Shown piece after piece: positions 30,720-62,938 of a stretch of 64,000 nucleotides of DNA; within the stretch, counting starts at the first letter, position 1; each line of letters begins with the position of its first letter. The stretch spans positions 186,001-250,000 of the forward strand of contig OZ237737.1 of the NCBI GenBank assembly GCA_965178125.1, given 5' to 3'. The notes beneath the pieces are model-generated. The model was given only the letters and a program-made list of their open reading frames with translations, was not told where the DNA came from and searched no databases. This stretch comes from Bilabrum cf. latius (Eukaryota). Made by a program: the position numbers and the translations under genes.

Positions 30720-30788
<69 letters not shown>

Positions 30789-34685: not shown

Positions 34686-34797
34686 GCTGTGGCCACGGTA
34701 TGGCCTTGTCTCCACGAGCGCCAAACGGAACTCAAGTTGCACTGCACGAACGTACGAATGAACGAGACAGAGCAATTCACCGCAAAAAGTGGGTCAG

Positions 34798-37700: not shown

Positions 37701-38097
37701 GGTCTGCGTGCTGGCGCTGCAGTGCATGAGCCCGCGGCTGGGCCTGGCCTGGCGAGAGTTATGCAGCGGTGTGACGAGTGAGGGGTTGGCTGGGGCGGTG
37801 CCCTCTGGAAAAGAGCAGGCGGGAGGAGGAGTGGAACACATGGAAGAGCGAGACAGGTCCTGGCTGCCCGAGCCCGCTGCCCTGGAGTCGTGCGGGCGAG
37901 TGGCGGCGCCTGTCGTGGCGGATATCGCTGGCAGGCTGACTGCATCCCTTCCGAGGTGTGGCGAGGGCCAATCAGCCCGCCAGCTGGTCTCAAAGGTCCG
38001 TGCTCTGCGGGCGCTGGGCAGCGGGCCAGGAGCAGATCCGTCGATGGGGGCGCTCACGGGGCATACTGCGCTTGATACTGTGATCATGGCGTCGTAA
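34798..38097 (+). CDS. GCFC-domain protein (PAXBP1/GCFC2/ILP1 family, spliceosome disassembly)
   Basis: RWEQEAMERG and VMEDVRGEDYADIQRVLGRFEALR...EAYVAGFVSEALPELLRPYV..EV.GW.P match the GCFC domain. Three ORFs join across TAG 35371 and 35947; TAA stop. Confidence 0.75.
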
Positions 38098-38315: not shown

Positions 38316-38900
38316 ATGGCTAGGTCAAGTACTGTGGCGGGCGCGAAGCGCAGGAAGAAGTCGAAGGTAGTTCGTCGATAGGTTGCGGCTGGGAGCGCAG
38401 CACCAGTGCAACGCAGGGCGAGGCCAGGGCAGCGTGCGCTGCAAGAAATTCGTTATTATCAGAAGAATACTGGTCTCCTGATTCGGAAATTGCCCTTCGC
38501 AAGATTGGTAAGGAACCACTCGTTCGCGACGTTGTCCCGTGCTGGAGATCGCTATATATTCGCCCCGTGCTATGCTCTCATTTTGTCTCGCAGGTTCGCG
38601 AGGTAACCCATTATTACACTGGAAGCGATTTTCGCTGGCAAGCTAGCGCGCTGATGGCTTTGCAAGAGGCTAGCGAGGGGTACCTTGTGGGCTTGTTCGA
38701 GGACGCGTGAGTTTACACATATTTCGATCATGACATCACCCATCAATGATGCGTTCGTGTAAATCGAAGGTTATTACAAGTATCAGCTCTTTTTCTGCCG
38801 CAGAAATCTGTGCGCCATTCATGCGAAGCGTGTCACTATCATGGTTCGCGATATCCACCTCGCCAGAAGAATTCGGGGCGTATCGGATGCAGCTGTTTGA
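38316..38900 (+). CDS. CENH3: Centromeric histone H3 variant (CENH3/CENP-A)
   Basis: Three exons (38316-38507, 38594-38706, 38804-38900). H3 fold with a non-H3 N-terminal tail, PFARL (H3 Q68 lost), FRWQ (F84W), EDANL (T107A) and loop 1 one residue longer. TAG at 38379. Confidence 0.88.
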
Positions 38901-39247
38901 TGCAATAGGTGGCTAAATGCGCACTGCGCATCGAAATGTAACGGGTTGTGCAGGGTGCCCGGGGAGGTTGGGCAAATCGGGTCCGCGCGTGGATCGCCAC
39001 GTGAGGATTGCTTCAGGCGATGGCGGTAACTTGGTGAAGGCGATGGATACTTTGAATAATTCTGAGAGTAACAACGTTTGTTCGACATCAGGCTCCGTGC
39101 TATCATTCCCACGTCCCCCCACAAATGAATAAGGCACGACTCCAGGTGAAACACAAGGGACGCTCCGGTGGCTGGGACGCTGGCAATGCCTGGCCCACAG
39201 CCTGGCAGCTAGGAAGAGGAATTTCGTATCAGCACTGCGCCTGCCTA

Positions 39248-40373
39248 TTACTTCCCACCCTGGCTCCCAATGAGCCCACCAACTAGCCTCTGCACCCAAG
39301 CCGCCCCGCCCTCTTCTGCCGCCCTTGTACCGGCACTTGCCTCATCCCCCTGCCCCTGCCCCTCCCCCTCCCCGTGCGTCCTCACCTCAGGCCCAGCGCC
39401 CGTCATGGGCATCCCGCCCGTCCCCTGCTTCCTACCGTGCTTGTTCCTTGCCTGTCTCCGCTCCCTCCTCGCCGCGCCCCTCTCTTCAGACTCCCAGGGA
39501 TCCGGGGGGAGCCCATGCACGCGGATCCCGGGCAGCAGCCGCCTCAGGATCAGGTCGACGAGAGTGTAGATGAGACTCTAGAGAACCGCGGGGCAGTTCA
39601 GCATGAAGTGCAGTCCATAGACAGCCTTTCCAACCTCCTCCTTGCCCACCACCGCCCCGGCCGCGGGCAGAGACGCGTGCATGAGCCTGGCCAGCAGCTC
39701 CTCCCGGAACCCCCACATCTCCTCCTGGCTCCACGGGTCGCCGAACTTCATGAAATCGCCCCCTGGCCACAGCAGCTCGCGCACCAGGGCGAGATGGCCG
39801 CCCACCGAGTCTCCGGAGAGGGACCGCTTGTACCAGTCTCCCAGCTGGGCCGACATTGTTCCCTGGTACAGGAACACGCCTAGGGAGCGGACGGCGGACA
39901 CGGCGGAGCGCTTCAGCAGCCCCTGCTGCTCCACCTGCAGCACCGTGGACACGAGCCGGAATATTTTATTCTCCGCCACAGCGAGGTCGTGCGGGCTCAG
40001 GATTGGGCCCGGCCCGAACCGCGCCATGTCGGCCAGTCTCGTCCGAATCACCCTGGGAGTCGCTGCAGAGCCCGCCTCCACCACCCAGCTGGCAGAGTGC
40101 CCGTGCCCGCGGGGAGTTGCCGGCCCCCTCACCGCGCCCACGCTGGACGTACCGAGTGCTGCGCCGGCAGAGGCGGAGTGCTTGTGGTGCCCGAGGTGAC
40201 GAGCCGACCTGGCTTGTGCCCTGGCCAGCGCACTGCCACCCTGTGCGGCTCCTCCTCCTCCTCCTCCGCGGAATGACACGGTGTGGCGATGCTTCGACAG
40301 TGCCTGCTGCTTGTCCCCACCACCCAGCACACCCGCAGCACCTTCGCCGCCATCTCCATCTCCGGCTCCACCT

Positions 40374-40406
<33 letters not shown>

Positions 40407-43400
40407 GCATCAGATGCCCCAGCCAGCCCCCAGGCCAGTGCGCCCAGATCGCCCTCAGAGTCAGACCTAGGGGCCAAGAACCCGCGCATCTCGAAGGATT
40501 CCGCCACTCCGAACGTGCGCATGGCCTGCGTCAGCCATCTCCCCAGCGCTCTACCCCTCTCCTGCACAAACGCCGCACCGACACCCGACAGGATGGTCTT
40601 GGGCGGCAGCGTGGCGGTGTATCTCCGGAAAGACTTCTTGAGTAGCCCGTGGACAGCGTGGAACTCCCGGTACCGGACGAAGTTCGTCCACCTGAGCAGC
40701 CCGCTCATCACGTGCACCTCGTACCGCGCTATCTGCCTGACCACCCGCCCGCTCGGGTCGTGCCGCTCCTCGATGATGGGCGCACCCACGCCCGCAATCA
40801 GCGGCGCGGTCGGCTTGAGCAAGATGTGCCTCTGCGCGAGCGACTGCCGCGTGCTTCGACGGGCGGGGCACAGCTTCCGCTGCAGCACCGCACGCACTGC
40901 GACGTAAACAGGGTTGCGGAACCGATTCAAAGCATGCGCGGCGCCTCGAGGCGAGGACTTGTCCTGGAACCCGCCCCTGGAGCCAGCAGCTGCGGCCGTC
41001 CCGCCTGCAGCGACTGACTGCTCCTCCAGCATGCTGGGCGGCAACGGTGGCATGCTTCTCTCTGCGTCAAGCAGTGCCAGCCTCTGCTGGGGCGTTAGCA
41101 TGGGCGATGCGCCGGACCTGACCGGGCTGTAGCCTGCCGGAGATCCAGCTGATCCGCCCTATGCCCTGCCAATGGCCCCCGCGCCCACTCCTCCCCCCGC
41201 TGTGGCCATGGCAGAACGGGACACCTGCGCGTTACCCACAGCCCCTGCCGCCGAACTGCTCCCCATGAACATGAAGAGAGACCCCATCGTCCGTGCAATC
41301 CCTCGCGACTGAGCAGGATCGTCGCCAGGCTGCGCCACACCCAGCGCCACCAGGGTGTCGAAGGAGACGGCCGCGAGATGCCCCTCGGTCACCGGGGCAA
41401 CGGGCGGTCGTGGAAGACGTCTGCGCGTCCTGGGGCGACGCTGCATCCCCATAGCAGCCTCACCCTCCCCTGCTCCAGATCGGGTGCTAGTCTTTGTGTC
41501 CTCCCCTTCTTCTTCTTCTCCTTCTTCCTCACCCAGTGAGCTCATGCTCTCGTCTCTCAGCCTGCGCATTGCCTGAATGTCCTGCAGTATAGAGGCCTGC
41601 GCGCGGGTCGCTGCCCTGTCAGATACCACGGCTGACACGCGCTTGTATCGGCCACCTGACCGTCCACTGCTGGATTTGCCTTTCTTATGCTTCTTGTGCT
41701 TCTTGTGCTTGCTATCCTTGCTATCCTTGCTATCCTTGCTGTTGTGGCTGCCCGCATGTGGCTTGTCAGTTTGTGCAGATTCTGCCGTGCCTTCCGCTCC
41801 TCCATCGTCGGTAGACATGGTAGCAGTTGCGGCAGCGGCTGCCACCTGGGCCTCTGCTTCCGTGCCCGCACCTGCATCGTCCTCAGGAACGGCGGGTAGT
41901 GCCTCTACAGGCCTAGCAATCGTGTTGGTGCGCGATCTGGACTTGCGCGAAGGCATCCTGGGGCGAGATCGAAGACTGGCAGGCTCCGGAGACTGGGCTG
42001 CCCGAAGTGGGCCCGACAATTCCGTAGTGCCTTCCATTGAGCTTCGTGCGCCTGCCTCTTGCTCCGTCGCTTTGCCTTCGCCGGTCTCCACCTCCGCGTC
42101 GTCATCAAATAGGCTCAGGCCACCGAACAGGTCCATGTCAACGTCACCCTCGCTGGCTCCAGCCTAGGCACCAGCAGCGGGAGGGTCCATACCTGTGCTC
42201 CTACGGGATCCCGCTGCCTGTCTCTGCGCCCTCGCTGCCCTCTCTGTGGCTAGCTGCCCCGCATTACCCCCAAAGTAGTTGCCGTGCAGCATGTGACGGT
42301 AGAGGCCGGCCCCGGTGCCAGACCCCGTGCCGCCGTCGTCGTCGGTTGCACCTGCCATCCAAACGCCGACTTCCGCCCGAGCCGCGGCCGGTGCGTTCGA
42401 AGCAGTGGCCCCGCGCATCGTTTGAGAGGGGGCTGACTGCATGCGCACGAGCGGAGACCGCGCTGCACGTGAGCGAGTAGACCCACCGCTACAGCTGCCA
42501 CCGGCGCGCGCACTGCCATCCTACACCGCCGCCCCGTTGCTATCGCGGAGCCCCTGTCCCTGCGCGACCTGCTCCTGCTCCTGCTCCTGTCCCGCGCTCT
42601 GGTTTCCTTCCCCTATGGATCGCCTCGACCGCCGCAGGAGCTCTGCCATGGACCGCCGTCTCCTCGGCGACTTCCGTTTCTCGTCCACCTCGGGAGGGGG
42701 CGGGAGACTCAGACCCTCGAAAGAAGCCGCGCTAGAGCTAGCCTCCCCGGATTGTCCGACCCCCCCTGGTGATGCCAGAACAACAGACAGGTTAGGCTTT
42801 GTTGCAGCTGAAGGCTCCGGTCGTCCTGTCGATTCTCCGTCACTCACCGAGGCCCCAGTCATTGGCGCTGCATCGCCTGTACCGGTGGTACTGGTGCTCT
42901 AAGCCGGCACATCCTCCTCGTGCAGTCGTGCAACGCCGGCGTCGATTCTGATTTCGGCATCGTCCCTCGGCTTGGTGCTGTCTACATTACTATTGCCCTT
43001 GGCTTCGTCCTCGTCCTTCACCTCTGTTGGACTCGCCCCGCCAACGAGCGCATCCACAGCCGCTTCCACCTGCACTCGACGGCTGGAGTCTTCCAGCGCC
43101 GCTTGACGCACCGCAGCCACAGCTTCAGTGGGCGCACTCGGGCCCGCAGAGACCAACGTCCTTGCAGCTGTGCCAGACGCAGCGGCATCGGTTGCGGGCG
43201 AGCTTACTTCGTGCTGCTTCTCATTGGTGGCTGGCCTCGCAGATGAGCTACCCGTACCCGTGGTGGGGATACTAGATGCGGAGGCATCTGCAGCCTCTTG
43301 TACGCCAGCAGATGCTGCAGTGGATGCTGGCACAGACTTGCCCCGGATTTCTGTCTGTCGTGGCGACTGTGCAGATCCGCGCCGCCCTGACACCTCGCAT

Positions 43401-45103
43401 TCAGCTGACGCAGCGGCAAATCGGTTGCCGTTCGCAGACTGCCGCTCGCCGTCCCGGATTCCGTGTGTCCCACCCTCCGCCGGTGCTGCCATCGCCGCTG
43501 AGGGCGGACCTCTGGCCGAGCTTGGGGTGCTTACGCTCGACCCCGGTTGCTCGGTCTGCTTGCCCTGCGGCTCCGCCTGCTTGCCGGAGTCATCGCTCCC
43601 AGTCGTGCCCTGGCCGATCCCTGCCGCCTTGAGCGAGTAGAGCAAGAGCCATGCCACCATCGAGGGATCCAGACTTGCGAGCCCGGGCTGCGCCACGCAC
43701 GACACGATGACCTCCCTCAGCAACAGCCCAAGCGCCGGCGACTCCTGCTCCTGGGGGGGCACGAGTCGGTGCATCAGCTGCGAGATGACGGGCCGTAGGT
43801 ATGCGTTGGCTGTCCTGGCTGCTTGCTTCATGCTGCGGTCCCCCGAGGCCTGAGGATATGCCTCGGACCCGATCACGCCCCTCAGGTGCGCCTGCTTGGT
43901 GGATGACAGGTCCACCGCGGGGTGCAGCACGCCCTTGGCAGCCTTGAACTCTCCGAGCACAAGCTCGATCTGCTTGGTCTCTTGCTTGCGGAAGGTGTCG
44001 CTGTCCCCGACCCGCACACCAACGCCCGCACCACCTGTCGGCTGAGAGTGCGTCTCGGATCCAGCAGCAGTGGCGGAAGCAGCCCCAGCGGTCGAAGCGC
44101 CGGCATGGCTTGATTTCGATGATGGCATTCCGCCAAGATCGCTGCTACCGCGTCTGCTGTCCGCTCCATCGTCCACCGCACGTGTCTCCTGGCCCCTGCC
44201 AGCTCCAGAAGTAGGTCCACCTGCCGACTTACCCTGCCCCTCATCCTTGCCCTGCGGCCCCGGCCCCTGCGATCCGCCACTACTTGTGATGCCACCGCCC
44301 GCTGCCGCCGCCAGCCTGGCTCCCCTCAGAGCCGCCCTGGCAGCGTAGTCTTCTGGCCGCACGCGGGAAAAGGTGGATCTATTTCGAGCAGATGCTCGCT
44401 GACGCATGATTTCGGTCCACCTGAGGTGGTAGGCCACCGCGTCCACCACGTCGTGCAGCAAGAGAGCGGGCACGGGGAAGTCCGTCGACATCTGACCAAG
44501 GCGACCTAGCACGTGAGTGAGCATGGTCGCGACGTGGAATCTGAACTCTTGGTCCACAGATATATTGCCATTGTACCAAAAGTCCACAAAATCTCGCAGA
44601 ATAAACTCCACGATGCGGCCAAGCTCCACTGCGACTTTCTGGGGCATGTCGAATCTCTGCGATAGCATTTCGGCTGGAATATCCGGCACAGGCACCGGCC
44701 TGCCGTCGCCGTCACGATTTGCTCGAATCGATCCGGGCGGTGGTACCCCGAGGTTGCCGAGGCTGGCACTACCAGACGCCCGAGGGGCGCTTTCACTAAG
44801 CTTGGCCCGCACGTTTGCAAGGGCTTGAGACAGCATTCGAGACTCTACCTCGTCCGATAGCAGTGCAGTAGACGTTAACCTCAACTAATTGCTAGATTTT
44901 GAGCTTGATTTTGCTCCGTCATCGACCAGATCCTCCAGAAATTCTCGATAATGCTTGTAGCGGAGCCTTGTAACCATTCTGTTCCACATACCAGACCCTG
45001 CCTCGTAGGCCAGGAAAGCTACAACCACAGCACATACAAACGCAATCACGTAGTACAGTAATCCATATATCGTGTACAAAAGCCATCCAGCTAGGCCCCA
45101 CAT
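39248..45103 (-). CDS. PXA-PX-PXC sorting nexin (SNX13/14/25, Mdm1-like), ~1950 aa
   Basis: N-terminal TM, PXA (FILRDFVDFWY..IS.D.EF; LLLREVIVSCV), PX (RYREFHAVH..LK...LPPK), Nexin_C (LLWPGG; LIYTLVDLILRRLLP). Seven ORFs fuse in one frame across six TAGs (44885, 42899, 42521, 42164, 41159, 39578). TAA at 39248. Confidence 0.85.
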
Positions 45104-45235
45104 CCTACAGTTTCCCTTGGCGAGTTTTCGTGTTGCTCTTTGTAAGGTGTTAACCAAGAAATCAAGAGTGTGGCGACCTGTCGTCCGGCCAATCAAGTGG
45201 GTCTGTGCCTTGGTTAGAGCTCCTGGTAGGCTACA

Positions 45236-47087
45236 ATGGACGCCAAGACGAGAGAATATGCTGTAGCAGCTGCTGCAGGGGCAGGTCTTGTGTTAGGAAG
45301 CGTTTGGCTGGGTGTCCAGGTCGGCAAGCAACTCGCAAAATCTGAAGCTGCAACTGCAGGACCAGCCGATGCGACAGCGGCAAGCAGCAGCCGATCGGTC
45401 TCGTTCAGAGATGCTTCATATGCGTAGACACCCCCCAGGGCAGTAAAGTAGTCCGCGACCAGCGATGTGAAGCGGGGCTTCCGCGGCGGCGCAACGTCAC
45501 CCATGATGCGCGGCTTCGGCACGATAGGCGTATTCGAAGAGGGCAGCAACTCCAACTTGGTCATAGGACCACCTGCCTTTGATCTTGACGGGAAAGCCGG
45601 CTAGGCTGGGGATGATGAGGGGCTAGAAGGCTCCCCAGGGCCCGGCGGGGCCGCGCTGGGCGAGGGCACCGGCTCAACAAGCGTGGTGCGCAAGGGCAGC
45701 CTGGACGGGCCCGTGCTGCACCCGCAGGAAGGTGCAGCGGGTGATATTGCTTCCTCAGGGGACGGCGTTGCCAGCCGCACGCTGCAGCAGAAGCTCGAGG
45801 ATGCGGTGGGCAGCAACCCTCAGTGCGTGCGGCCCATCATCATCGTGGTAGGGGGCGCCAGCGGCAGCGGCAAGACCACCATCGCGCAGGAACTCTAGAA
45901 GCACCTGCCGCACCACAAGGTAGACAGCATCAGCCAAGACTCGTACTACCGCTCCCTGCCCGAGGGAACAGACGCCAGCACGTACAACTTCGACCACCCC
46001 GAGGCGATCGACTTCGACCTGGTGGTGCAGCACCTCAAAGACCTCGCCAAGGGCAGGGACGTGGAGGTGCCCAAGTACGATTTCACCACGCACAAGAGGC
46101 TGGAGGGCACCCGCCTCGTCTCGAAGCCCTCTGTGGTCATCCTGGACGGAATCTTCACGCTGTCCATCCCTAGCGTCAGGAGGAACTGCGACCTCACCGT
46201 GTTCACGCTGGAGGACCTCGACATTTGCCTGGCTAGGAGGCTGAGAAGGGATCTGCAGGAGAGAGGCAGGGACGTAGACAGCGTGCTTAGGCAGTACCAC
46301 CGGTTCGTGAAGCCGGGCTACCACACGTTCATCGCCCCCAGCATGCGGGAAGCCGACCTGATCATCCCGAGGTGTGAGTATGTGTGTAACAGCCCAATGG
46401 GCATCGATCGATCGACCCCCAATTCTGTTGAGAATGCAGTGATGCCGTCTTGGGTTTCCTGCGCTGCAAAGCTCCCGGGGAAGCATCTGTATCCACACCT
46501 GTCGTGCCCTCCCCTACCCACCCACCCCCGTCCGCTGCCCTCGATGACCCCCGCTCTTTGATGACCCTGCCCCTTTCCACCCCCGTGGTCCCACCCACCT
46601 CGCAGCGCGGGACAACAAGCGGGCCATCCAGATGCTGGCCCGAGACATTGCCACGCAGGTACGGAACCTCGAGCGAAAGTTCCGCCGCCTGCTTGCAGGT
46701 GGAAGCACCAGCGACATTCAATCGGTGGGCAGCGGCAGCATCGAGCACGGCAGGTCGAGCGGGAGGCACCCAGGATCCATGGCGGTAGGGGGGAGCGCAG
46801 CCGCCGCCACCCCGCCCGAGGGAGAGATGGAGTCTTTGTTGGTGAAAGGTAGTCGGACTGGTTCTGCTGCAGGGGTCGGGATGGAGGAAGGCGGGCCAGA
46901 GGGGGAGTAGGCCACTGGAGCTGCTACCGGTGGTGCTGGAGCTGGCGATTCGGTAGGCGACCAGACCCCTCGGCTGGATCTGGATGAGGAGACACTCCGG
47001 GGCGATGACCCCAGGCTGGATGCGCCCCAGCGGCCTGTCAGGAAGGAGAGCGACGCTTTGGACATCTCTGACATGAAGCAGGGGTGA
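45236..47087 (+). CDS. UCK: Uridine-cytidine kinase with N-terminal hydrophobic anchor
   Basis: GGASGSGKTT, ISQDSYY, YNFDHPEAIDF, VPKYDFTTH, LARRLRRD.QERGRD, QY.RFVKP, ADLIIPR. Intron 46374-46605. TAGs at 45425, 45449, 45602, 45896 and 46908; TGA at 47085. Confidence 0.9.
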
Positions 47088-48792: not shown

Positions 48793-50988
48793 ATGCACCA
48801 GGTTTTATTTCGTGTGAGAGCTCGATGGGGTCTTCGCCATGCGTATAAATTGGCACAGGCTGGGGCCACGCGTGGAACAACGTCACCGTGGCACCTGTAG
48901 ATGAGACCCTTTGGTCGTGCCGCCCCGATGGAAGCTCGCAAGCCGCGAAGTAGAGCTGCGGGTGATTCCACAGATGGCGGCAGGACCGTTGAAGCTGAAA
49001 TATAGGGGGAGCACCCAACAACCTTGTAGTCTGCCGACCAGTTCGCTGAGGCACTCCTTCAGGAGAGCTGCAGCAGACTGGCGCTCTTAAAATCATCAGA
49101 AAATAAGCCATTCTTGCCAACAGCTGCAGTTGGCAAACCCATAGTAGATGCTATGTCAAATCGAGGGAGTGGCAACCGCGTCTCGCTAGCATTCGACAGA
49201 CGCCACCACAAGGCGATTTTTTTGGAGCGCGGCAGCCGAACTGGTGTTCTGTTATGTGCATCTATATGGGGTGGAGCTAGAGGCTAGGCTGCTGCCCCGG
49301 TTCAATTTGCATCCGGCAGCCGAGCTGGTGCGGCAGAGGTCGAGCAGCGGCCTGCTGGCAGCGGGTGGTCTGGCCTCGTGTCGGGGCAAGCGTCTGCTGA
49401 GTCCTCGCCGCCTCCCTCCGTGGAAGACGTCGTGGGCGAATCCTTAGAGCTGTCTCGGGCGATGGGGAGCGCAACAGCGGCGATGGGGTTATGGAGGAGC
49501 GGCGGGGCTGTCGTGATCGGGGCAGACAGCACCTTCGGCTTGGAGCATGCCCATGCCGACGGGGCAGGTGCCTCGTCAGGGAACACAGGCACAGACTCAA
49601 ACAGCACGCACGGCCCTGATGGACTGACCCTTCCCGCGGTGGGTCTGTCCCCAACCGGGGACTCTCAGGGGTTCGGGAGGCAAGCAAGGGTGAAGCGGGC
49701 CTCCCAGCGGAGGACGGACCTCATGCTGGACGTGGCCGACTTCATTGGGGGCCTCCGGGGTGTTGTGGTGGCCACCGGGTGCGGTGGTGGCATGACTGCG
49801 GAGGACAGCGACGTGCTCTCTGCGGCGTGCGCCTTCTCCACCGGTCTGGGCCGGTCCGCCGCGGGCTGCGAGAGGGCGCTGGGGAGGGAGGACCTGGCGG
49901 TTGCAACCGCTGCGGGGACTGTCAGTGCGCTGCAGTCTGCGGTCCACGTGGCTACTGGCGTGCTCAGCGGTGCGAGCCACCTTGGGGAACAACGATAGGG
50001 GAAGTGGCAAGGTGGGGCTGCTTCTAGAATCCGTGCGCCCACGGCCGGTGAGGCAGCGGAGCTCCATGCGAGCGGAAGGGTCCCTGTCAGCCCGCTTCGG
50101 GGCCTGGAAGCTACCGTGGTGGGCGCTGGGTTCGTGGGGCGAGCGGTCACTCAGATGCTGCTGGAGCTGGGAATCGCGCGAGTGAAGCTGGCAGAGCGAT
50201 CGAGGGGCGCCGTAGCGCGGGCGAGGCACGCGCTGGCAGACGGCAGGGTCGAGATAGAGCACGCAGAAGGGCACGAGCTGCTCGGGCTGGACTCGGAGCT
50301 ACTAATCCCGTGCGGGCACGGGCCGCTGGTCACCCCCGCGAACGCGGGGACTGTCGGCGCGCGCATCGTGTGCGGGCCCCAGCTGGGCGCGATCTAGCAG
50401 CCTACCGTGGTGTCGCGGGCCCTGGCGAGCAGAGGACGGTTCGTTGTGCCAGCAGAGGTGGCGGGTAGGGCCGCGCTTGGGGCGCAGCTGGCGGAGACCG
50501 ACGGCATCTTGGCTGCTGCGCTTACGGACGACCCGAGAGTGGCGTTGCAGCTGGCGGCAGGCAGCGACGCGGGCATACCCTCAACGACGGAAAGACTGCT
50601 AGAGCCCGACTCCACGGCAGGGCGGTGGCGGACGGGCGACGGGTATGGCGCGCTGGTACACGGTCTAGAGGACACAGAGACGCCGGGAGAGTCGCATCCC
50701 ATGCTAGGAGGGGGCCACATGACCGCGCTGCTCGCCACTCTGCTGGAGGACGGGTGGCACAAGGGTAGCTAGCGTGACCAGGCGAATGCACGGGCAAAGC
50801 GACTGGACTAGCGGCTGGAGCGTGGCACGGGTCTGGACGCACATGGGCGGTGGCTGCAGTCGGTTGTGTACGGGGGCTGGAAACCGGGGGACAAGGCGCC
50901 TATCCGCAACTCGATCGGGCGGGGCAAGCTCCCCAAGAGCGTGGTGCGGCACAGAAGGCCTGAGCACACCGATGAGCAGGACTGGTGA
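48793..50988 (+). CDS. Divergent Leu/Phe/Val dehydrogenase-like protein, probably mitochondrial
   Basis: One frame across 8 TAGs to TGA 50986. Recognisable segments SLELSRAM..., DFIGGLRG.VVA...GGMTAED, VVGAGFVG (Rossmann), SELLIPCGHGPLV...ARIVCG. Arg-rich N-terminus. Confidence 0.65.
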
Positions 50989-51092
50989 TCGCAAGCTTCG
51001 TGAAATGCATAGGAGCAGATTGCTACCCGTAGATTGAGTAGTGACGCGCAGTAATGGGCTTTAGTGTAATACAGTATGCGAAAGGTAACATT

Positions 51093-54000
51093 TTAACAAC
51101 AAAGGTATGAGCAACAAAACCACGATCTCCAACCACCGTGTGGATGAGTACCACAGCATCCTCGGCTGCTGAGACCCGGCAGGCCCTGCTCTCCCGTGTC
51201 CTGCTTGGAGGCGATTACGTGCAAGCCTCTCCTCAGCGGCGTCACCACGTCCTGCACCTCCTCGGGCACCAGGGTCAGCAGCTCCCGAGCGGACTGCAGG
51301 GACTCTTGCAAGGCACCTGCCTCTGGCCAGTAGTAGATGGCAACTCCTAGAGAGAATGCCGCGGCGAATACCCAAGTGACCACCATGACAACGTGCATGG
51401 TGACGCTCAGCTGCCCCCCGAAGTCGGAGTCCATGCGAGTGAGGGCGAGGGCGTAGGCATCCCGCATGTGAGGCGACTCCAGCCCAGCCATGCGCAAGAT
51501 TCTGTCTCTGTTCTCCTCGGTATCTATGGCCACCTGGGCTCTGGCCGACGCGGAAGGGGGTTGCATCTCGAAGGAAGGCGCGGCTTGCGACTGCAGCTCC
51601 TTGGCAACCGACTGCAAGGCCACCACAGCACTAAGCAGTCCATGAGTTGCCGCCCCGCCCGCCACAATCTTGCATTCCCTCAGCTGCAGGTCGGGGTTGC
51701 TTTCAATGGCTACGGCCAACGAGCTGGCGTTTGTTGCAGCCCTCACAGCAACTGGCACCTCATCTGGTCCTGCATCTGCCACATCAATCCAGTGTCGCGT
51801 CGCGAATTCCTCCTTGAACACTGGATCGCAGGCATCTTTCAGCAGGACCGCGTGGCCGGGCGAGCTGTCGTCCAGTGCGGGCAGCTCGGTCGTCACGTCC
51901 ACCTGATCTGACCTGGTCGTACCCCCGAACTGGATCAGCTCCGACTTGGACGACAGCAGCGCGTCCTGCTGCACCATCCGCTCGTAGGCATCCAGCTGCA
52001 GATCCGAGCCGGCGGGGTAGAGGGCCATGCCCAGCGCGCTCCTGACCATTGCAGTGGCATGCACGGCCGAATGCTCGACGGAGGCGATGCGGTAGGACGC
52101 CATTTCTGCCGAGATGAGTCTAGCTCTGAGGTAAAGCACGTTGAAGAGCAGCAGCCCCAGCACCAGGATGACGGGAGACATAAAAAGTGAAACCTTGTTG
52201 CACACGAAGTTGGAGGACGAGGTGAAGGGTCGAGCGGGCGGCGGGATGGTCGTGTCGCTCGACATCAGCGCGTAGCTGTGGGCCGCAGAGTCTCCGCCCG
52301 CAGGCACCGCAGCGCCATCGTTCAGCTCACCGTGCTTGAGCGATGAGTGCAGCGGCACGACCTTGTTGCCGCGCTTACCGCCCCCAGTGCTCTCCGTGCT
52401 GTGGCGCACCATTTGCTTGGATTCGCCTTTGCCTTCTCCCTGCTTGACCACGCCGGACTCGATGTCAACGTACTGCACGCCGCCCATGGAAGCCATCTGC
52501 CTGGATGCGTCTTTCGTCTACCTCGCCGCGTGCGACCTCACCCTCCTTGCGACTTGCTTCTCCGCCGCTCGAAGCACCGCCCTGTAGGCCTCCTCGCCGT
52601 CCTCCTGCTGCACGAACAGCCGCTTCTCCTCCTCTTCGTCGTTCATGCCACCGCGCCCATCGGCGTCCGCCATTTGCACGGACTAGTCTTCTCTCTCCGC
52701 CACCAGCTGGTCCAGCCCCGTCTGTGCCCTCTCCCTCAGGGCCTTGGCCAGCCTGCGGGGGACGTGCAGCAGCAGCATGGTCACGGCCTGCGTGCGCTCG
52801 GAAATGTCACGCACTGCGGCGTAGAAAATGGGAGTGGCCACAAGCACGCACAGCGCGAATGCCACCGTGCCTGCTATGATGAGCTCTGTCTGCACGACCG
52901 GCATGGCACGCACAAAGTCCTTCTGCCGAATGGCCAGGCTGTGGTTCATGCCGCTCCGAAACGCGTCGTAGTTTGCGTACAGGAAGCGCCAGGCCACCGA
53001 ATCGTGCGAGTTGACCTGCTCCACGGGCAGTTCCGCCAGCCGCTCCATGGCCTGGTGCACCTCCAGGCCGAGATCCACCAGGCTTGTCAGCCGCGCGCTG
53101 GTTCCGTTGGAGGCCAGGTCAGCCGACGGCTGCGTGACGGCAATGTGCCGCATCAGCTCCCAGTCGAATGCCTCCTTGCCCCCGCTCTCCTGCAGCTCGA
53201 ACAAGTGCTCGTGGTGGTGGCGCATGGAAGAACTGTGCGCCGCCATGCGCGCCAGGTCGTGAACTGGGTCCTGAGGGTCTGCCGCGTCCAGCTTGTCGTA
53301 GACCTGGAAGTACCCGTCCACGTCCTGCAGCTGCGTCAGGCTCCCGTTCGACATGTCAACCACACGTCGGGCCTCGCCGTACCTGCCGAGCTCCTCTACG
53401 TACGACATGCCGTACTCGAAGTCCAGCATCCTCCAGCCTGCCTCTGTGAGCGCTTCTGTCAGACCAGAAAGCCGAGAGACAGCGTGCCGGAGCCAGATCA
53501 GCTGCACAGCACCGATGACAATCACCGCCAATACTAAGCCCACCAGCGTGAGTCGGGTACGGGTCACCTCGGGCTCCGTGGTCTTGGCCAGCTGCCTGAT
53601 GCTCTTGCGGACCACGATGTTAGCATGGGAGCCCATGCTTGCCATCGACTGCGCGTCTCCAGATTTCCCCATGCCCGCCATAAGGGACGACCGCGGCTGA
53701 TGCACAGCCTTTGATATGCCCTTTGCGATCGTGTACAAGCCGCCACTGGTTCGTTTCCCGAAAGAACGCCCCGCACCCATGGTCGGACTCTGCATGCTTG
53801 CTCGACGGGACGACGGCGGGCTGCCGCGCACCCTCTCCGTGATCCGCACCCTTGGCTTGCCATGATGGCTTGACCTCCTGTGATGGTGCCCGTGTGAGGG
53901 TCCTTGCAGGCTGTCCTTGCTCGAGAAACGGCTGTGCATCGTGCGCTTGCCGTCCTTCGTCACCACGATCCTTGCCTTGGAGGCGACTGCATCGATCGCA

Positions 54001-57000
54001 ACCTCTGGGACACTCCCTTTGATCTTGTGCCAGGACCTTCTCGCCCTTGCGATCCGGGTGGCGTGCTGGGCATCGGACTCGCTGCTGCTGGCCTCGTCCT
54101 CCTCATCCACGCTGCTGCCGTCGCCGTTGCCACCAGCAGACGCAAGAAGCAGCATACTGGGCGAGTCGTCAGGAGGCGCCTTCGTGCCCTTGACCACCTG
54201 CGGAATGCCAGCTGCCAGCAGCATCTCCTTGTGCCCGTTGTCCAGCCCGGCCGAGTCCTGCTTGGAGGGACCTTCGGAGCCCTGGGAGGACGCCGAGTCC
54301 AACTTGGCTCCACTGGAGAGGTCAGGCTGTCCGCTCGGATTCGAACGCGGTGGTGAAGATTTCTCATCGTCGTCCGTCTACTTGTGCTCTTCCGACTTGC
54401 TGGAACTAGTACCGGCGCCGACTGCGCTTTGTGACACCTTAACTCTATCAACGCTTCTCTGCTACGTCAGCTGGCCAGGACTCGTTAACTCTGCCGACCC
54501 CATCTTGTCTGAGCTTACCAGTTCGTTTGGCTGCGTTTCCAAGACATCGGTGGACAACGACTACTTTCCTTGGCTGTCAATGCCCGTCACAGAGCTGTTG
54601 AGCTGCCCGGCATGCATCTCCCATCTGTGACCGCGAGTCGTGCCTGCGTTTTGCTGAGGGGCATCGGCCAACGCATCGGATCCGTTGTCGGCGTCGCTTC
54701 GTTCTGCAATCTGGACGTGCTTTGCTTCTCCATCTTGACGAGGTTGATTTGGCGCCGCCCCGCTGCTGCGAGGAGACGAGGACGCATGCTAAGGGCGCTT
54801 ATCGACGTCGGCTGCAGCGGCAGCGTTGCGCCCCCTTCGGGTGGCTGAGACTGCGAGCATGCTGTCAGCATCATCATCGTCACCACCGGTGCCATCCTCC
54901 CCAGAATGCATCGTCTCCACATCACCAGATGTCAGGAAGCTGTCTTGGGTGCGACCACGCTCCCGCCTTCCTCCATCTACGTGGTCCGACTTGCGCCCCC
55001 GCCCCCGCCTCCCCTTCTCTCGAATGACCGGGTTGTGGCCAGACGATCCCAGCATGCTGCCGCCGCCGTCCGAGGATGCAGACGACCCAGATTCGGTGTA
55101 TTGCTCATCCAGTCCTCCACTGACCATTTCCTCCTGTCGCTTGTCGGCAAAGCTCCACCGAAGCACGTAAAACTCTCCCGAATTGGCCGGGAGCATGACG
55201 TGCTGCAGGTTGCCCAGCAGAAGCAGGTCACCAAAGGGAGTGCCCACCACTGGCACGAGAGATACCTTGGCTGCTTCTGCATCCAGAAGCGGCTTCACAT
55301 CTGCGACTCTCGCGCCGCGTTTCTTTGGACTAGTTGTGTCACCTGAGGCTGACGCACTGGCTGATCCCGGCTCCTACAAGTTCCTGCTACTGCTCTCCCG
55401 TGCCACACCGTTCATTGACAGCATGGAAGGGCCTCGCATGAGCGCAGCCTAAGCGAGCGTGGTCTGGTTCTGCACGGTCATGGACAGCTGACTGCGGCCG
55501 AGCGACCTGCGCCTAGGACGGGCTAGAGCACCGCGGTGCTCACGGGGGTGGCCTGGCGGGGGTCCAGGGGGCCCAGGTGGGGCCATCAGTGGGGACCGAG
55601 ACCCTGGTGGGCCAGGCACAAGAGAACCGCGACCTGAAGCCAGCAGACCAGTTCGCATGCCATTGTTGCGATCTGTGGACGACAGCAAGTCGCCATCGGA
55701 CACCACCGACTTGCCGTCAAGCGATCTTGGACTTGCATACGATGCAGATCCCACGCTTGAGCGGCGATTGCGCTGAACCTGCAGCGCCTCACGATTGTGT
55801 ACCGCAGCCCTGGAAGCCTCCTGTGCCGAGACTCTCCGAAGCCCGAACTGCTGCTTCATGTCGTGGACGGCAGGTTGTGCCCTGAGCTGCTTGACTTGTT
55901 CGCGATCCAGCTGTATGGTGGCCGAATGGAAGGAGGGCGCGGCGGTGGGGAAATACTGCAGCATCGACACCCGACCATCGCCTATCTGCTCATGGGTGAT
56001 CCCCAAGATGTCAGCAGACCGCTGTGTAGCTGCGTACAGCCTCATGCCGTTATTCGCAGCCGCAAACATGATGTAGTCTTCCTCCGTGATGATCTCTCGC
56101 ATCACAGCGGTGAACCTGGGCTCAAAGGTGCGCTCGTCCGGTGGCGACTCGATGATAGTCTGCCACACGGGGACCAGCGAGCCGTCTTGCCGCTGGTAGA
56201 ACACAGCCCTCTCGCGGTTCAGCACGCGAGTTTTCTGCTTTGGTGCAGCTGCAAATCGATTCAAGTACGAATCGTGCTGCGTTCGAATGGGCTCCGGCAG
56301 CACGCTGTTGATGTTGTGCCCAAGCAGCGCTGACTGCGCGAATCCAAGGATCCTGCATGCAGCCGGTGACGCCGCGACGATCTCTCCGATGGAAGACCCC
56401 TGTCCAGAGATGGCCACCACGGCGCTGCTCTCGTCCATGATCGAGAGCCTGGCTGCCTTGACGTCAGCGATGGCTGCGGCCGACATCCCTATCATGCCGC
56501 GGGCGGCGAGCTCCCTCCGCTTCGCTGCATTGGCACTGGCAGAAGCCATTCCTGCAGCCATGCCTCCAGCTTGGTGTGTTTGATGCTGGCCCTCAGCCTG
56601 ATCGACATCACTCGCTGCATGCTTTGCAGGTTGCAGCAGCGAAACCCCGCTAAGTACTCTGCGCTTGTCGCTGTTGTGCACCTCTTCCAATCGATCTGCC
56701 TTGTTGAGGTACTCTTGTGCCTTGTCTGGGTCCTGACCTAGGTCCATTAGATGCTTCGCGTATGCCCTAAGCGCGCTGGTGCTGTCGCTGTTTAGGTCCA
56801 GCATGGCTCTGTGCAAACGGTCGGCTTGCTTCAACTTGCGCTGCAGCGTCACCCCAATGTTCCACAGTCGATCCAGGTCAGGTGCCACCGCTGCCATGAC
56901 GGACCACAGCCGCGTGAGAAGCCTGAACGACTCCGTCCGGGCCTCCTGGGCCTGGTTGAACATCTGGTCGAAGAGCACCCTGTCGATGGGGGAGGAGCCC

Positions 57001-58855
57001 TCGGAGCCTGTCTCTCGCAGCTGGGTGGACCGGTGATAGATGTGAAATAGCACGTCTAGGGACGGAGACAGGCCCCTGGCGCGGGCAAGGGCCATGGCCT
57101 CGTGGAAGAGCCATGGGCTGTGATCCCTGAACCCGATGGACGCCAGCATGCAGGCCATCTCCGACTGCGGGAACTAGGTGAGGAGGAAGTGCATCCCCCG
57201 GAAAGCCTCTCTGAGCAGCCTGCGCTGCTCCGCAAGACGAACTCTCGATGCGCGGTCCACAGCGGCAGCAACGTTCCCGCCCTGCTGGGCCTGGCCACCC
57301 TGGTTCTGGGACGGCTGTCCCCCCCCTCCACCACCACCACCCCCTCCTCCCTTTGCCTCCTCATCGTCCTCCTCCAGCGCAGCAGCGGCTGCGTACGCTT
57401 GAGCGGTGGTGGCGTCCGCAAGAGACTCCAGTTTGGCCACCTGCCTGAGCCGATGTCGGATCCACGCGTTCACGTCATATACGGAGGAGGAGCCCCCGCT
57501 GAAGTCCTCCAGCCTCATGGACTGCACCGTGAACTGCCGCACGTAGACGAGCGTGCCTCCCGCGGTACCCGCCAGGATTCCACCCAGCAGGAGCAGGGCA
57601 GAGTGATCCTGCACCTCGTTGCTGCCCTGTGCGATGGCGAGACACACACCAAACCAGAGGTATGTCGCCGCAAACCCCGCCATGAGAGAGTTGATTGCTG
57701 GTAGGGGGTGCACCAGCATGGAGGCCTGCAGGTAGTACCACAGGGTGCCGCACCCGATGTGCAGCACCGTCATGTACGTGGTGCCAAGCAGCTGGTCCTG
57801 GAACAGGTTGGAGATGAGGGAGAGAAGCAGCATGATCAGCAGGATGGCCACGTCGAGGCGCCCAGTGGCCTTGGCGGCCCAGCTGGCAGACGTGGGGTCC
57901 TTGTCATGGAACACGCTAGCCACCAGGACGGCGAGCACTGCGATGATACAGTAGAAGCACAAAAGAGAGCGGAACGTTGCGCATCTCTGCATTGCAAGGC
58001 CTTCAGTGGACCGAGAGGCTGGGAACTCTGCCCCTGGCCGGCACGTGCGGAATGCAAGGGGCGGTGGGGTGCAGGCGAATGGAACAGCTGCCCAGTGGGC
58101 TTGCCCGTCCCGTCACCCGAATTGCTACTTCTATGCGTACCTCTACAAACTAAAATATGCGACGGACCACGTATTGCCCGAACCCATGGACGGCTTCGCC
58201 TTGTCTCACCAGTCAGTATCAGCACAAAGACGACAGTAACGACAGCTGTAACAACCCGGGATGGCGAACTGCATCGCACTCCAGCGCTCAACCAATCGTC
58301 TCCTTCGCACGCAAGCCCCCGGAAGAGGAGTCCAGCCAGCGGGAGATACAAAATCGAGGCCGTCAGCGAACCTCCCCACCGGAAACCTCTCAGCAGCAGC
58401 CCATTCTGGGGCCAATCTAGAAGGAACGATGTTGCAATAAAAGCTGCGGCTGCGCAAACACATGCAGTCCACGCTCCCGCCATCGCGAAGAGCACGATAA
58501 AGGCGCCAGTGCCCGAGGTTGCCGACGACGGCGCCAAATACCCGACGCTCCTCCCGAACCCGATGGCCCACGGCGAGTTCGACCATGGCAACGCATCGTT
58601 ATCAGCGACAATAAAACTTGACAGCTGTAGAAATCTAATAGTCTGAATCAGAATGAAAAGGAAGGTCACGTCGGCTTGCTGACGCGTCAACAAAGCAAGC
58701 GTTCCAAACACTGATCGGACCAGCTGCAATCCAACACGGTCTAGGCACGTATTTGCCCGATCCTAATCAAAGAATCCTGATCGTGCAGCGCTCAGCGACT
58801 GCGACATCGCGCCACCAGACAGGGAGTTGCTGCCACCACCGGCAACAGATTCCAT
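51093..58855 (-). CDS. Very large (~2500 aa) multi-pass membrane PAS-domain protein, TmcB/TmcC-like
   Basis: N-terminal multi-TM block, TPR-like region (LRAYAKHL), PAS domain (GEIVAASPAACRILGF....LLGHNINSVLPEPIRTQHDSYLNRF), then repeated TM pairs. About 10 in-frame TAGs, at least one intron (~58209 to ~58000, acceptor uncertain), TAA stop. Confidence 0.75.
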
Positions 58856-59345: not shown

Positions 59346-60451
59346 TCAGCAGCACCCGCCCTTCTTGCCCTCGCCCTCCCCGCCTGCCTTGCCGTCGCTG
59401 GGCCCCCCCACCGTCACCGTCTCACCCCTGGGCAGCTCGGCCTCCTCCCCTTCGTCTCCCGCGTCCGCCTGCTGCTTGTCAAGGATAACCTGAATCTCCT
59501 CGAGGACCTCGGTGAAGGCCTCAGACACGTTTGTTCCCTCCATGGCGCTCGTCTCGATGAAGCCGAGCTGGTTTTCCTCGGCGTATTTCCTCGCTTCCTC
59601 CGTGGAGACCTCGCGCTGGTGATCTGGCTTGTCGCACTTGTTCCCTACCAGCATAACCACAATATTCACATCTGCGTGTTCCTTGAGCTCTGCCAGCCAA
59701 GTGTCGACGCTCTCAAACGTCTTGTAGCTGGACACGTCGTACACAAGCAGCGCACCGACGGCGCTGCGGTAATAAGCGCTTGTGATGGCCCGGTATCTCT
59801 CTTGGCCTGCGAGTGATGTATTAAAAACCGCGGAGGATACGTTAAGATTGGTTCTAGTACTACCGCTGCCGCCTTTCTCCGCTTTCCCAGCACTACGACG
59901 TGCTTTGCACAGGCCACGCAACGAGGCGGTACCAATAACAAAAGGCTGGCCGCAAACAACCGCCAATGCATAAACTGTCCATGCCAGTCTGACCTAAGCA
60001 AACTATGTTTGCAAGTGGCGCCACTCTCATCAAGCTCGCATGGCCCGAAGCATCCAAGCATTCCATCCAAGAGTAGAATCTTACCTGCTGTATCCCAGAT
60101 CTAGGCTTTGATTTTCTTGTCTGACTAAGTAGTGTATGTTTGCGTTGCAAATTCCACCCCGATGGTGGTCTTGCTCTCAATATTGAACTCATTCCTAGTG
60201 AATCGCAACAGCAAGTTCGACTTCCCCACGTGGGTATCCCCGATCAGAACGACTGCAAACAAAATGAGATGAAGATGCAAAGATAAGAGTGAGAGGATCG
60301 ATTGGTCACAGGCTGGAGCAGTGAGGATTCCCAGTGGCCAGCCTATGACCAATCCTCTATAGACAGGCGTCTCCCCAGCAAAAAAAGCCCAATTGAGCTC
60401 ACTTTTGAATAAATAGTCATAGTCCTAGTCTCCACCGGCTGCTCCTGCCAT
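59346..60451 (-). CDS. RAB11: Rab11-family small GTPase
   Basis: Exons 60451-60403, 60252-60085, 59806-59346: [40 protein letters not shown]...IKA[TAG][19 protein letters not shown]...GNKCD...ETSA...GGCC. TAGs at 60425, 60125 and 60101. Confidence 0.96.
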
Positions 60452-60571
60452 CTGAGTCCGTCTATGGAACACAAGCTGGCGCGAAAGGTGAAAAAGCTGC
60501 ACATGATGCGCGGCGCCGCTGCCTTTCGTCATCATCCTCGCCGACGAGCTGGCGCCCACTTGTTTTGCGAC

Positions 60572-62695
60572 ATGGAGCGCCTTGGTATGTATATTAGAGC
60601 ACTGGCTGCACAATTTCAATAGAAGATTGGTCGATCATCGAGTCATCCTCGGACTGCAGCGCACCGACTTTTTCGAGGCCCCGATATTCCGCTTCTTCGA
60701 GGCCCAGTTGTCCAACGGCAACTGCCGGGGTGCGCAGAACGACGCAGCTTGCACTGCTCCGCCACTGGTCTCACTAGTCAATCAAGAGTCACAGAACAAT
60801 CGCCTGCTGCACTGGTGGAGGAGGCAGGCGCGTCGGCTTCCGGGCGTGCCCGAAGACGCCCACGTCCTGACCATGACGAACCCCGCCGTCGTAACCAGGT
60901 TGTACCGCCATTGCAAAGGCCACAGGCCTACTTATCGGATGAGTTAACCGACGCTACTTTGAGTGAGGCCGGCGTTCCGCCGCACATGATAGGCAAACTG
61001 CAGCGTCTCAAGGTGAACTCGGCCACTCGCGTGCAGGCCGAGGCCATCCCCAGGCTGCTCACTCACCCAGACAGGGATTTTGTGATCCACTCGGAGACTG
61101 GCAGCGGGAAAACACTAGCCTATGCGGTCCCTCTGGTTGCCCGAATCGAAACAGCCGCGGTGCGAGCATGCCGCGCGATCGTGGTGGTTCCAACTCGGGA
61201 GCTCGCCAAGCAGGTGTCTGACGTGCTCGAGGAGCTGGTCCGGAGGAAGAACAAGAAGGGCAAGGCCAGCGAGGGGGCGGGCACACCCTCCATATCTGTG
61301 CGAAAGTTCGTCGGGGAAATCACCCAGGTTCGCTTGAATTCCCTCAGCAGGGACCCCCCCCACATCGCGGTGGGGACCCCCCAGACGCTCGCGGCCCTCC
61401 TTCCCGCGGCCCTGCGGCTGGGCATGCTGCAGACCGTGGTGCTGGATGAGGCGGACCAGCTGATGGCCCCTCATTCCCGCAAGGCCACGGAGCACGTGCT
61501 GAAGTGCGCCACCCGGGTGTCGGACCGACCCCAGGTGGTCATGGTGTCGGCCACCTCCAGCCTCGCTCTCAGGAAGGCCAGGGAGACTCTGCTGAGGAAG
61601 GGAAGGCGGGGCGTCACGGAGGAGATCAACATGCTGAGGCACGGGGTGGCCATGCGTGTTCCCTACAGGGCCAGGCACCTCGGCATTCTCGTACCCAAGC
61701 CCACCAGGAGGTAGAGGAAGGGAGGGGCCGGCGGAGAGGAGAGCGGTGTCAGCCCGGAGGCGGTCGCCTTGCGACCGAAACTGCGGGCACTTACCCGGCT
61801 ACTTGCCGCGCACCCTCCTGCAGCCATGCTCGTGTTCTGCTCCACGCAGGCTACGGCAGAGCAGGTGCTCGTGCACTTGGCCTCGAAGCGGGTGAAGTGC
61901 GCTGGCCTGCTGGCCTCGATGAAGAACCGGGAGCGGGCGGCGGCGCTGCGGCGTATGCGGGACGGCAGGGCGCAGGTGCTCGTGGCAACCGAGCACGCCA
62001 GCAGGGGCCTCGACCTCCCGCGACTCTCCCACGTCGTGAACTTCGACCCTCCCAAGACGGCAACCTCCTACGTGCACCGCGCGGGGAGGGTGGGCCGCAT
62101 CGGGAGTCCAGAGGGGCTGGTGGTCTCCTTTGTGGCGGGGGAGCCAGTGCCAGGGAACAGGGGGGCCGAATTGGATGTGATGAGTGCTGCTGACGCTGCC
62201 GCGGCGGGCTTGGGATCGGCAACGACGGTGACCTCGGCCGGTGGGGACGCGTCGGTCGTCGAAGAGGCAGTGGATTCGGGGGACGACATGAAGGCAGGGG
62301 GAGAGGGAGAGGCTGGGCGGAATGTGGGTGGTGATGGCGGTGACGGCAGTGGGAACACTCGCGGGGGGCGGGGTGGCGGGTTGCTGGCAGTCCCCGAGCG
62401 GGGGGTGCAGCTGATGGAGGTGGCGAGGGCAGTGGGTGCGAGGGGGGGCGGGTTGCGGTGGGCGGTGCTTCGAGAGAACTAGCTCGTGTACGGGGACGAC
62501 CGTGTGCTGGAGCCTGAGGAGGCGCTTGGGCTGGTGCTTGGGGACGAGGAGGAGGAAAACACGGACAAAATGGGTGGAGAGGGACAGTCGTGGGGCGATG
62601 CGGGAGGGTCTGCCGCTGCTAGTGTGAGCACAGCCCCTGCCTCGAGCTAGACCGCTGAAGCGAGTTTTGGTGTTGCAGCTATCGTCCGGGGCTGA
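60572..62695 (+). CDS. DEAD-box RNA helicase
   Basis: Q-motif TRVQAEAIP, SETGSGKT, PTRELA, DEAD, SAT, SRGLD, YVHRAGRVGR. The two RecA domains join across TAG 61712; other TAGs at 60620, 62480 and 62648; TGA at 62693. Confidence 0.9.
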
Positions 62696-62938
62696 TTAAG
62701 TATCGAGAGCTCAATGCGGTAGTTGATTGCGTAGTGTGTATGTGTGCATTTGGTCCAAGCCTCGCAGCAGGCGAGTGCGGTATATCAGAATCACCAAATC
62801 ACACGCAACAAATAGCTAAAGCGACAAGCAATCCTTTGCAGCACTTTTCCTGATTGATCGAAGTGGTTCTGTCACTGCGGTTCTTAAAATCAGTGCATTC
62901 ATATTGTTTTCTTCTACTGTTGGCCTTATTGTATTAAA

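Follow-up and report, generated by a model that had tools for sequence, protein, structure and literature searches.

In nuclear genetic codes, UAA and UAG are nearly always reassigned together. Both codons (UAR) specify glutamine, as NCBI table 6 describes, in most ciliates, in Dasycladales, in the group of Trentepohliales, Cladophorales and Blastophysa, in hexamitid diplomonads and in Amoeboaphelidium, as far as the available excerpts of the literature list them. The exceptions to the joint change named in these excerpts are Iotanema, a rhizarian, Scotinosphaera, an oligohymenophorean ciliate and several phyllopharyngean ciliates. According to the available text of Panek et al. (2017, PMC5304391), Iotanema spirale (Fornicata) reads UAG as glutamine and uses UAA and UGA as stops. 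UAG is also glutamine in the phyllopharyngean ciliates Hartmannula sinica and Trochilia petrani, for which the available text of McGowan et al. (2024, PMC11687900) gives "translation table 15". In other UAG-only changes on record in the excerpts, UAG is leucine (Rhizaria sp. exLh and three TARA ciliate metagenome-assembled genomes) or serine (Scotinosphaera). The sequence analysed here, referred to as the window, is a stretch of 64,000 nucleotides deposited under Bilabrum cf. latius (assembly GCA_965178125.1, contig OZ237737.1, positions 186,001 to 250,000). Its minus strand carries a Rab11-family gene with three in-frame TAG codons. The window organism in all probability reads UAG as an ordinary glutamine codon in its nuclear genes, with UGA as a stop and UAA very probably a stop as well.

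The window thus apparently adds a further lineage to the few in which TAG, and not TAA, has changed. The likeness to I. spirale, as far as the text available for that organism goes, lies in the conversion of UAG alone to a minority glutamine codon (~8% there, ~5% here) and in the retention of UAA as a stop, which is probable here. UAA is the predominant stop in I. spirale, whereas here at least 8 of the 11 genes with an assignable end stop at TGA, and the evidence is transcriptomic there, whereas it comes here from genomic loci of two related organisms with a GC content of ~0.62 in the window. The same table, with UAG as glutamine and UAA and UGA as stops, is inferred for H. sinica and T. petrani. 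In the available text on these ciliates, however, 93.5-100% of the C-terminal alignments end at UAA, in contrast to the mostly TGA ends observed here, and the window differs from them further in being GC-rich, in genes of up to ~2,300 codons and in GT..AG introns of 150-278 nt. The lineages with table 6 share with the window the change from stop to glutamine and the retention of TGA as a stop. They differ in that TAA is also glutamine there, whereas in the window TAA is found outside coding sequence and at probable gene ends. The lineages with UAG as leucine or serine likewise have UAG uncoupled from UAA, with the same predicted mechanism, a tRNA with anticodon CUA, but the amino acid is different, according to the same excerpts.

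The Rab11-family gene and its spliced form

The gene extends over positions 60451..59346 of the minus strand and has three exons. The spliced frame is 678 nt long and consists of 225 codons and a TGA (59348-59346). TAG is in frame at codons 9, 59 and 67, and there is no TAA or TGA before the terminal TGA. There are no frameshifts, and all the internal stops are TAG. Exon 1 (60403..60451, 49 nt) starts with ATG at 60451-60449 and includes the TAG of codon 9 (60425..60427). It is followed by intron 1 (60253..60402, 150 nt, GT..AG). Exon 2 (60085..60252; Pfam Ras, 3.4e-17) runs from the P-loop GDTHVGKS through WDTAG and includes the TAGs of codon 59 (60125..60127) and codon 67 (60101..60103). Intron 2 (59807..60084, 278 nt, GT..AG) separates it from exon 3 (59346..59806; Pfam Ras, 3.6e-33), whose coding sequence ends with GGCC directly before the TGA. 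The text that the sequence-only reading had reported around codon 67, ATC AAA GCC TAG ATC TGG GAT ACA GCA G with GT following at the splice site, is found exactly so, and the two further TAGs it had placed at 60125 and 60425 are in frame in the spliced gene as codons 59 and 9. TAG tracks the local composition of the gene. Exons 1 and 2, with all three TAGs, have GC contents at third codon positions (GC3) of 0.44 and 0.64; exon 3 has a GC3 of 0.79 and no TAG.

In the PDB search with exon 2, in which TAG was read as X, the best 31 sequences were all Rab11, Ypt31, Ypt32, RabA1a or "likely Rab". The E-values were 2.6e-19 to 2e-18 for Rab11/Ypt31/Ypt32/RabA1a, 3e-15 for Rab25 and ~1e-10 for Rab2, Sec4, Rab5 and Rab35. 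By this ranking, the closest solved homologues are of the Rab11 type and not other Rabs, which places the gene in the Rab11/Ypt31/RabA subfamily. All three printed alignments with Rab11/Ypt32 structures place a glutamine, the Q of IKAQIWDTA, against the X of codon 67.

Rab11/Ypt31/RabA proteins carry the motifs G1 GxxxxGKS, G3 DTAGQE, G4 NKxD and G5 ETSA, and a CC prenylation site at the C-terminus. DTAGQE, NKCD, ETSAM and the C-terminal GGCC are all found in the spliced translation. The earlier claim that every other motif and the CC tail are intact is therefore correct for these four and needs amending for the P-loop, which fits the G1 pattern but is GDTHVGKS in the window and GDSGVGKS in the aligned Rab11s, with T-H instead of S-G in its interior.

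Contigs of four public runs (X1, X5, X6 and X9) were aligned to positions 58500-62800 of the window. X1, the probable source DNA, covers the whole stretch in one piece with zero differences and with no joint at either predicted intron. A single joint is listed for X1, from 59890 to 61424 with 2,827 other letters between, and it belongs to another contig with a poor match. Contigs of X5, X6 and X9, which belong to two studies, show a joint from 59805 to 60084 with 278 nt missing. The missing segment is bounded by CT..AC on the plus strand and corresponds to intron 2. Contigs of X6 and X9 show another joint, from 60252 to 60403, with 150 nt missing, which corresponds to intron 1 and backs the end of exon 1. 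The RNA nature of X5, X6 and X9 is deduced from these intron-less joints, which are missing in the DNA run; none of the three is listed as RNA. The contig pieces over exons 1 and 2 have 0 other letters. The TAGs of codons 59 and 67 are unchanged in the spliced contigs of X5, X6 and X9, and that of codon 9 is unchanged in record 18 of X9, indicating that none of the three TAGs is lost in the spliced form. The sequence-only reading had named a cDNA with CAG, or an untranscribed locus, as evidence that would speak against it; the spliced contigs of three runs carry TAG.

These contigs bear on the proposal that editing turns TAG into CAG at the mRNA level, or that TAG is passed by inefficient near-cognate read-through, with no true reassignment. 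The runs were compared as contigs, from which minority variants are dropped, and no suppressor tRNA was found in the window or in the related locus L001 described below; both points leave some room for such a proposal. Against editing stand the spliced contigs of X5, X6 and X9, with 0 other letters over all three TAGs. As to read-through, TAG is located at invariant, functionally needed sites, namely before DTAGQ in Rab11, in the QSG motif of an esterase and in the Q motif of a DEAD-box helicase of L001, and there are up to nine TAGs in a coding sequence, a load that leaky read-through could not sustain. The proposal is very improbable.

TAG positions in the orthologous locus and across the window

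The homologue search with exon 3 found a 95-residue fragment, P0122, which is 95% identical to the window. The other Rab11s listed are 51-61% identical over this exon. P0122 ends where the next two codons in the window are glutamine codons. The scan of metagenomes yielded the locus L001, a 5,029-bp contig that is syntenic with positions 57618-62445 of the window at 72-86% nucleotide identity. The end of P0122 is exactly at a TAG of this relative. Among 80 Rab11-like metagenome loci scanned, L001 is the only one whose aligned exons contain TAG or TAA in frame.

The orthologous exon 1 begins at position 2166 of L001, and L001 has CAA opposite each of the three window TAGs (codons 9, 59 and 67). 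With internal stops that are all TAG, CAA at each in L001 and this one locus among the 80 scanned, the pattern goes beyond chance. The reverse exchange is also seen. The CAG at 59474-59472 of the window (residue 184) corresponds to TAG at 3253-3255 of L001. Both genes run in frame to TGC TGC TGA. The introns are at the same positions in both, and the intron sequences cannot be aligned. In exon 2, 53 of 55 residues are identical at 79.9% nucleotide identity, and in the core of exon 3, 107 of 112 residues are identical; these exon parts are ~80-82% identical in nucleotides. Such high residue identity at this level of nucleotide identity points to a protein that is under purifying selection past the TAGs.

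Could the locus be a decaying pseudogene, with TAGs that are ordinary nonsense mutations? Three premature stops under the standard code and the unusual P-loop would fit this explanation. However, the stops are all TAG and there are no frameshifts, while reading frame, introns, P-loop and CC tail are all preserved in L001, and the residues cited above are retained despite ~20% nucleotide divergence. Spliced contigs occur in three runs, and in-frame TAG is present in 13 of 15 open reading frames (ORFs) of the window. A pseudogene is extremely improbable. The contigs and the comparison with L001 point to a Rab11 gene that is expressed and spliced, is intact and under selective constraint, and has glutamine at all three TAGs.

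The P-loop is GDTHVGKS in both organisms (60190-60250 on the minus strand of the window and about 2385-2410 in L001). Its His is at the position that we take to be equivalent to G13 of Ras, and it may change the GTPase kinetics of Rab11.

The orthologous set, which comprises Rab11, the DEAD helicase, the N-terminus of a TmcB-like protein and an upstream exon, amounts to 1,104 codons. It includes 18 TAG sites, of which 10 are opposite CAG or CAA. The other 8 are opposite TCC (twice), GCC, AAC, AAG, ACG, AAA and TAT, mostly in variable stretches. L001 is less GC-rich than the window, and its use of TAG is about twice as high (12 versus 6 in the shared codons). In the DEAD helicase, TAG of L001 is opposite CAA of the window at codon 208 and opposite CAG at codon 248. 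The latter is the position that we take, from the motif consensus, to be the glutamine of the DEAD-box Q motif. In the TmcB ORF, TAG of L001 is opposite CAG of the window at codons 162 and 168.

The upstream exon is a block of conserved coding sequence ahead of the TmcB-like ORF, located at 58300-58930 of the window (minus strand) and 3938-4358 of L001, with 131 of 180 residues identical. It contains the one window TAG that is opposite TAT (Tyr) in L001. This block could be a further 5' exon, or else a small gene of its own.

A second invariant glutamine is found outside the Rab11 gene. The ORF at 23752-25464 (plus strand) encodes a type-B carboxylesterase (Pfam COesterase, 5.6e-79), and its TAG at 24565..24567, read as X, is opposite the Q of acetylcholinesterase HRAILQSGA (the QSG motif). 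The assignment of TAG to glutamine is supported by the 10 of 18 orthologous pairings and by the two invariant sites, Rab11 codon 67 and the esterase QSG motif. Other amino acids, such as Glu, Lys, Tyr, Leu or Ser, for which stop codons are used in other lineages, could be proposed from the single pairings of TAG with AAG, AAA and TAT and from the pairings with TCC. No residue other than glutamine is paired more than twice, however, and both invariant positions of the solved homologues are glutamine. There is next to no probability for another amino acid. The sequence-only reading had deduced glutamine from the conserved Rab11 site; this interpretation is supported, and it extends far past Rab11. 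What the sequence-only reading did not include is the reassignment of TAG across the whole window and the apparent retention of TAA as a stop.

Of the 15 gene-like ORFs in the window, only the SPOUT1-type methyltransferase gene and an ankyrin gene are without in-frame TAG. The longest ORF grows from 907 to 2,339 amino acids when TAG is taken as sense, and stays at 907 when TAA is taken as sense. In 9,670 confident codons there are 336 CAG, 55 CAA, 20 TAG and 0 TAA, so that TAG makes up ~5% of the glutamine codons. GC3 is up to 0.9. A census of stops in GC3 windows that ignored strand (17,277 codons; 92 TAG, 9 TAA and 42 TGA) was rejected, as its filter also takes antisense frames.

TAGs are distributed over genes of different types. 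The DEAD-box helicase ORF (60293..62692, plus strand) is divergent from Rab11 and matches Pfam DEAD (3.8e-31) and Helicase_C (3.7e-26). It has in-frame TAGs at 61712 and 62480; two others, at 60620 and 62648, are in doubtful parts of the ORF. The giant TmcB-TPR/PAS ORF (50154..58112, minus strand) has nine in-frame TAGs between codons 41 and 2300. The sorting-nexin-like ORF (38822..45415, minus strand), with PXA, PX and Nexin_C domains, has five between codons 201 and 2000. A membrane-protein ORF (14012..18415, plus strand) has one TAG, at 16037-16039, within ~1,150 codons of GC3 near 0.9, and GC3 is 0.90 on either side of it. The paralogues at 9519-12440 (plus strand) and 25875-27593 (minus strand) have 342 identical residues among ~395 aligned and two in-frame TAGs in common. 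This family has no Pfam match, and the database search gave one weak homologue (P0121, 30% identity); it looks lineage-specific.

The ORF at 28103-32107 (minus strand) has a C-terminal part with ~25 tandem copies of an 11-residue unit rich in Gly, Ser and Asn, next to RG repeats and poly-Ser. Over the N-terminal ~430 codons GC3 is low (0.35-0.65) and TAGs are unusually dense (10), with one TAA at codon 88. This TAA may be in an intron or ahead of the start. The metagenome search found no relatives of the ORF at 14783-18244, and the PDB search found no match to the C-terminal part of the ORF at 47077-50985.

Codons at gene ends

Of the 11 genes with an assigned end, at least 8 stop at TGA and 3 probably at TAA. 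In both organisms, TGA comes immediately after the Rab11 CC tail. The C-terminus of the esterase aligns to the end of acetylcholinesterase, and TGA comes next. In six further genes, GC3 and the coding score fall at TGA. The GC3 flanks are noisy in low-complexity genes, and a codon log-odds profile was therefore added. The maxima of this profile overshoot TGA into the neighbouring genes for the esterase, the methyltransferase and the ORF starting at 14012.

In three genes, the first non-TAG stop after the peak of the coding score is TAA. They are the sorting-nexin gene, the TmcB-like gene and the gene at 34762-38478. The probable stop of the sorting-nexin gene is TAA at 39250-39248; it is codon 2056, and the cumulative coding score is maximal at codon 2063. 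For the TmcB-like gene, TAA at 51095-51093 is the first non-TAG stop past the coding signal. If the ORF continued past this TAA, it would overlap the coding region of a convergent gene in antisense for ~830 nt. In the ORF at 34762-38478 (plus strand), the probable stop is TAA at 38095..38097 (codon 1112). GC3 is 0.70 before this TAA and 0.47 after it, and the coding score has its maximum at codon 1059. At the end of the sorting-nexin gene, TAA is immediately followed by TAG (39245-39250, minus strand), which is no true tandem stop if TAG is sense.

TAA within coding sequence was counted as zero in both organisms. Neither the window, with 9,670 confident codons, nor L001, with 1,104 aligned codons, has any, and the L001 set includes 18 CAA, 22 CAG and 12 TAG. 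If TAA were glutamine, scaling by the ratio of CAA to CAG gives an expectation of ~3 in the window and ~10 in L001. All 12 TAAs inside ORFs delimited by TGA are in low-GC3 stretches near ORF ends. None of the 12 has a GC3 of at least 0.70 on both sides, as opposed to at least 15 TAGs.

NCBI table 6, in which UAA and UAG are both glutamine and UGA is the sole stop, would also account for much of the window, with TAA merely rare through GC-richness. TAA is rare overall, with 177 TAA against 388 TAG trinucleotides in the window. CAA is likewise scarce beside CAG in confident coding sequence (55 versus 336), so few sense TAAs are expected, and the TAA gene ends were assigned by composition alone. 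Against this explanation stand the absence of TAA beside 20 TAGs in the window and beside 12 in L001, where ~10 would be expected, the contrast between the positions of the 12 ORF-internal TAAs and those of the TAGs in high-GC3 flanks, and the overlap that read-through of TAA in the TmcB-like gene would create with convergent coding sequence. Table 6 is improbable here. The zero count of sense TAA, the TAAs at three probable gene ends and the TGA ends together favour a code with TAG as glutamine and with TAA and TGA as stops (the "table 15" pattern), which is the most likely code from the sequences at hand.

Some observations weigh against TAG as glutamine, or against TAA as a stop. Three window TAGs are opposite TAT (Tyr), AAG and TCC in L001, one each, and five L001 TAGs are opposite non-glutamine codons of the window, in variable stretches. 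There is no sharp step in GC3 at the TAA of the sorting-nexin gene (0.68 then 0.60) or at that of the TmcB-like gene (0.55 then 0.47). The claim that TAA is a stop draws on 64 kb and 5 kb only, with gene ends defined by composition. In the DEAD ORF and the ORF at 9519-12440, the coding score declines ahead of the next TGA and TAGs are the only stops in between, so that occasional termination at TAG is possible. X5, X6 and X9 are only presumed to be RNA, and as contigs drop rare variants, a minority edited form is possible. No tRNA-Gln with anticodon CUA is present in the 64-kb window or in L001; the sole tRNA of the window is a tRNA-Glu(CTC), and L001 has none.

This tRNA-Glu(CTC), at 7218-7289 on the plus strand, is found ~100 bp downstream of the SPOUT1-type methyltransferase gene and is the sole Rfam/ARAGORN match in the 64 kb.

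Relatives, mechanism and meaning of the code

The best named relatives of the SPOUT1 methyltransferase are 36-41% identical to it, and none exceeds 41% at more than 55% query coverage. The named top matches are enriched in stramenopiles. The atlas search with the same protein returned clusters of Chordata and Streptophyta only. In a tree of 41 rows, the branch of the query is long (1.3); its position relative to Cafeteria, haptophytes and unnamed sequences is unresolved, and it falls outside the clade of Fungi and Metazoa (Shimodaira-Hasegawa-like approximate likelihood-ratio test, SH-aLRT, 98). This placement serves as a lead only. Green algae with TAA and TAG (TAR) as glutamine were considered as a source, and are unlikely, as TAA is not sense here and no Viridiplantae are present among the named methyltransferase matches in the best 120.

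Sequence at least 99% identical to positions 58500-62800 is found in runs under four organism codes (A-D) from four studies. Small shares of this region are also found in runs labelled "protist metagenome" and "algae metagenome". Possibly the organism is widespread and occurs in other sequenced samples as an associate, a symbiont or a contaminant.

With regard to the mechanism, UAG would be decoded by a tRNA-Gln with anticodon CUA, which would pair with UAG and not with UAA, so that UAG could be reassigned alone. The release factor eRF1 would have lost UAG recognition, or have it weakened, and would have kept the recognition of UAA and UGA. A tRNA with anticodon CUA and an eRF1 that ceases to recognise UAG are the changes discussed in the available text of Panek et al. 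(2017, PMC5304391) and McGowan et al. (2024, PMC11687900). For Iotanema, a T32G change in eRF1 is reported, at the residue in contact with the G of the third codon position; the N-domain motifs of eRF1 are GTS, NIKS and YxCxxxF. There is no eRF1 gene within the 64-kb window.

The full-text literature search found no description of UAG as glutamine in the nucleus of a GC-rich eukaryote outside ciliates and fornicates, or of a stramenopile; subscription journals were mostly outside this search, and a prior description by the submitters is possible. Chances are about even that the code of UAG alone as glutamine had an independent origin in a GC-rich, intron-poor lineage which includes at least two species, the window organism and that of L001, ~20% diverged in coding DNA, and which terminates mainly at UGA, unlike every described lineage with UAG as glutamine.

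For annotation, gene callers with the standard code cut the proteins of this organism short, as exemplified by P0122, which ends at the TAG of the relative. Such truncation means that the annotation of the assembly needs an alternative table. If the origin is independent, the lineage would be a genome-level and culture-independent system for the question of how eRF1 drops UAG yet keeps UAA and UGA. A GC-rich lineage with mainly TGA ends, and with genomic DNA from two related species, would test whether a tRNA with anticodon CUA together with specific changes in eRF1 is sufficient for UAG to change independently of UAA, and whether GC pressure, by making UAG stops rare, favours the reassignment.

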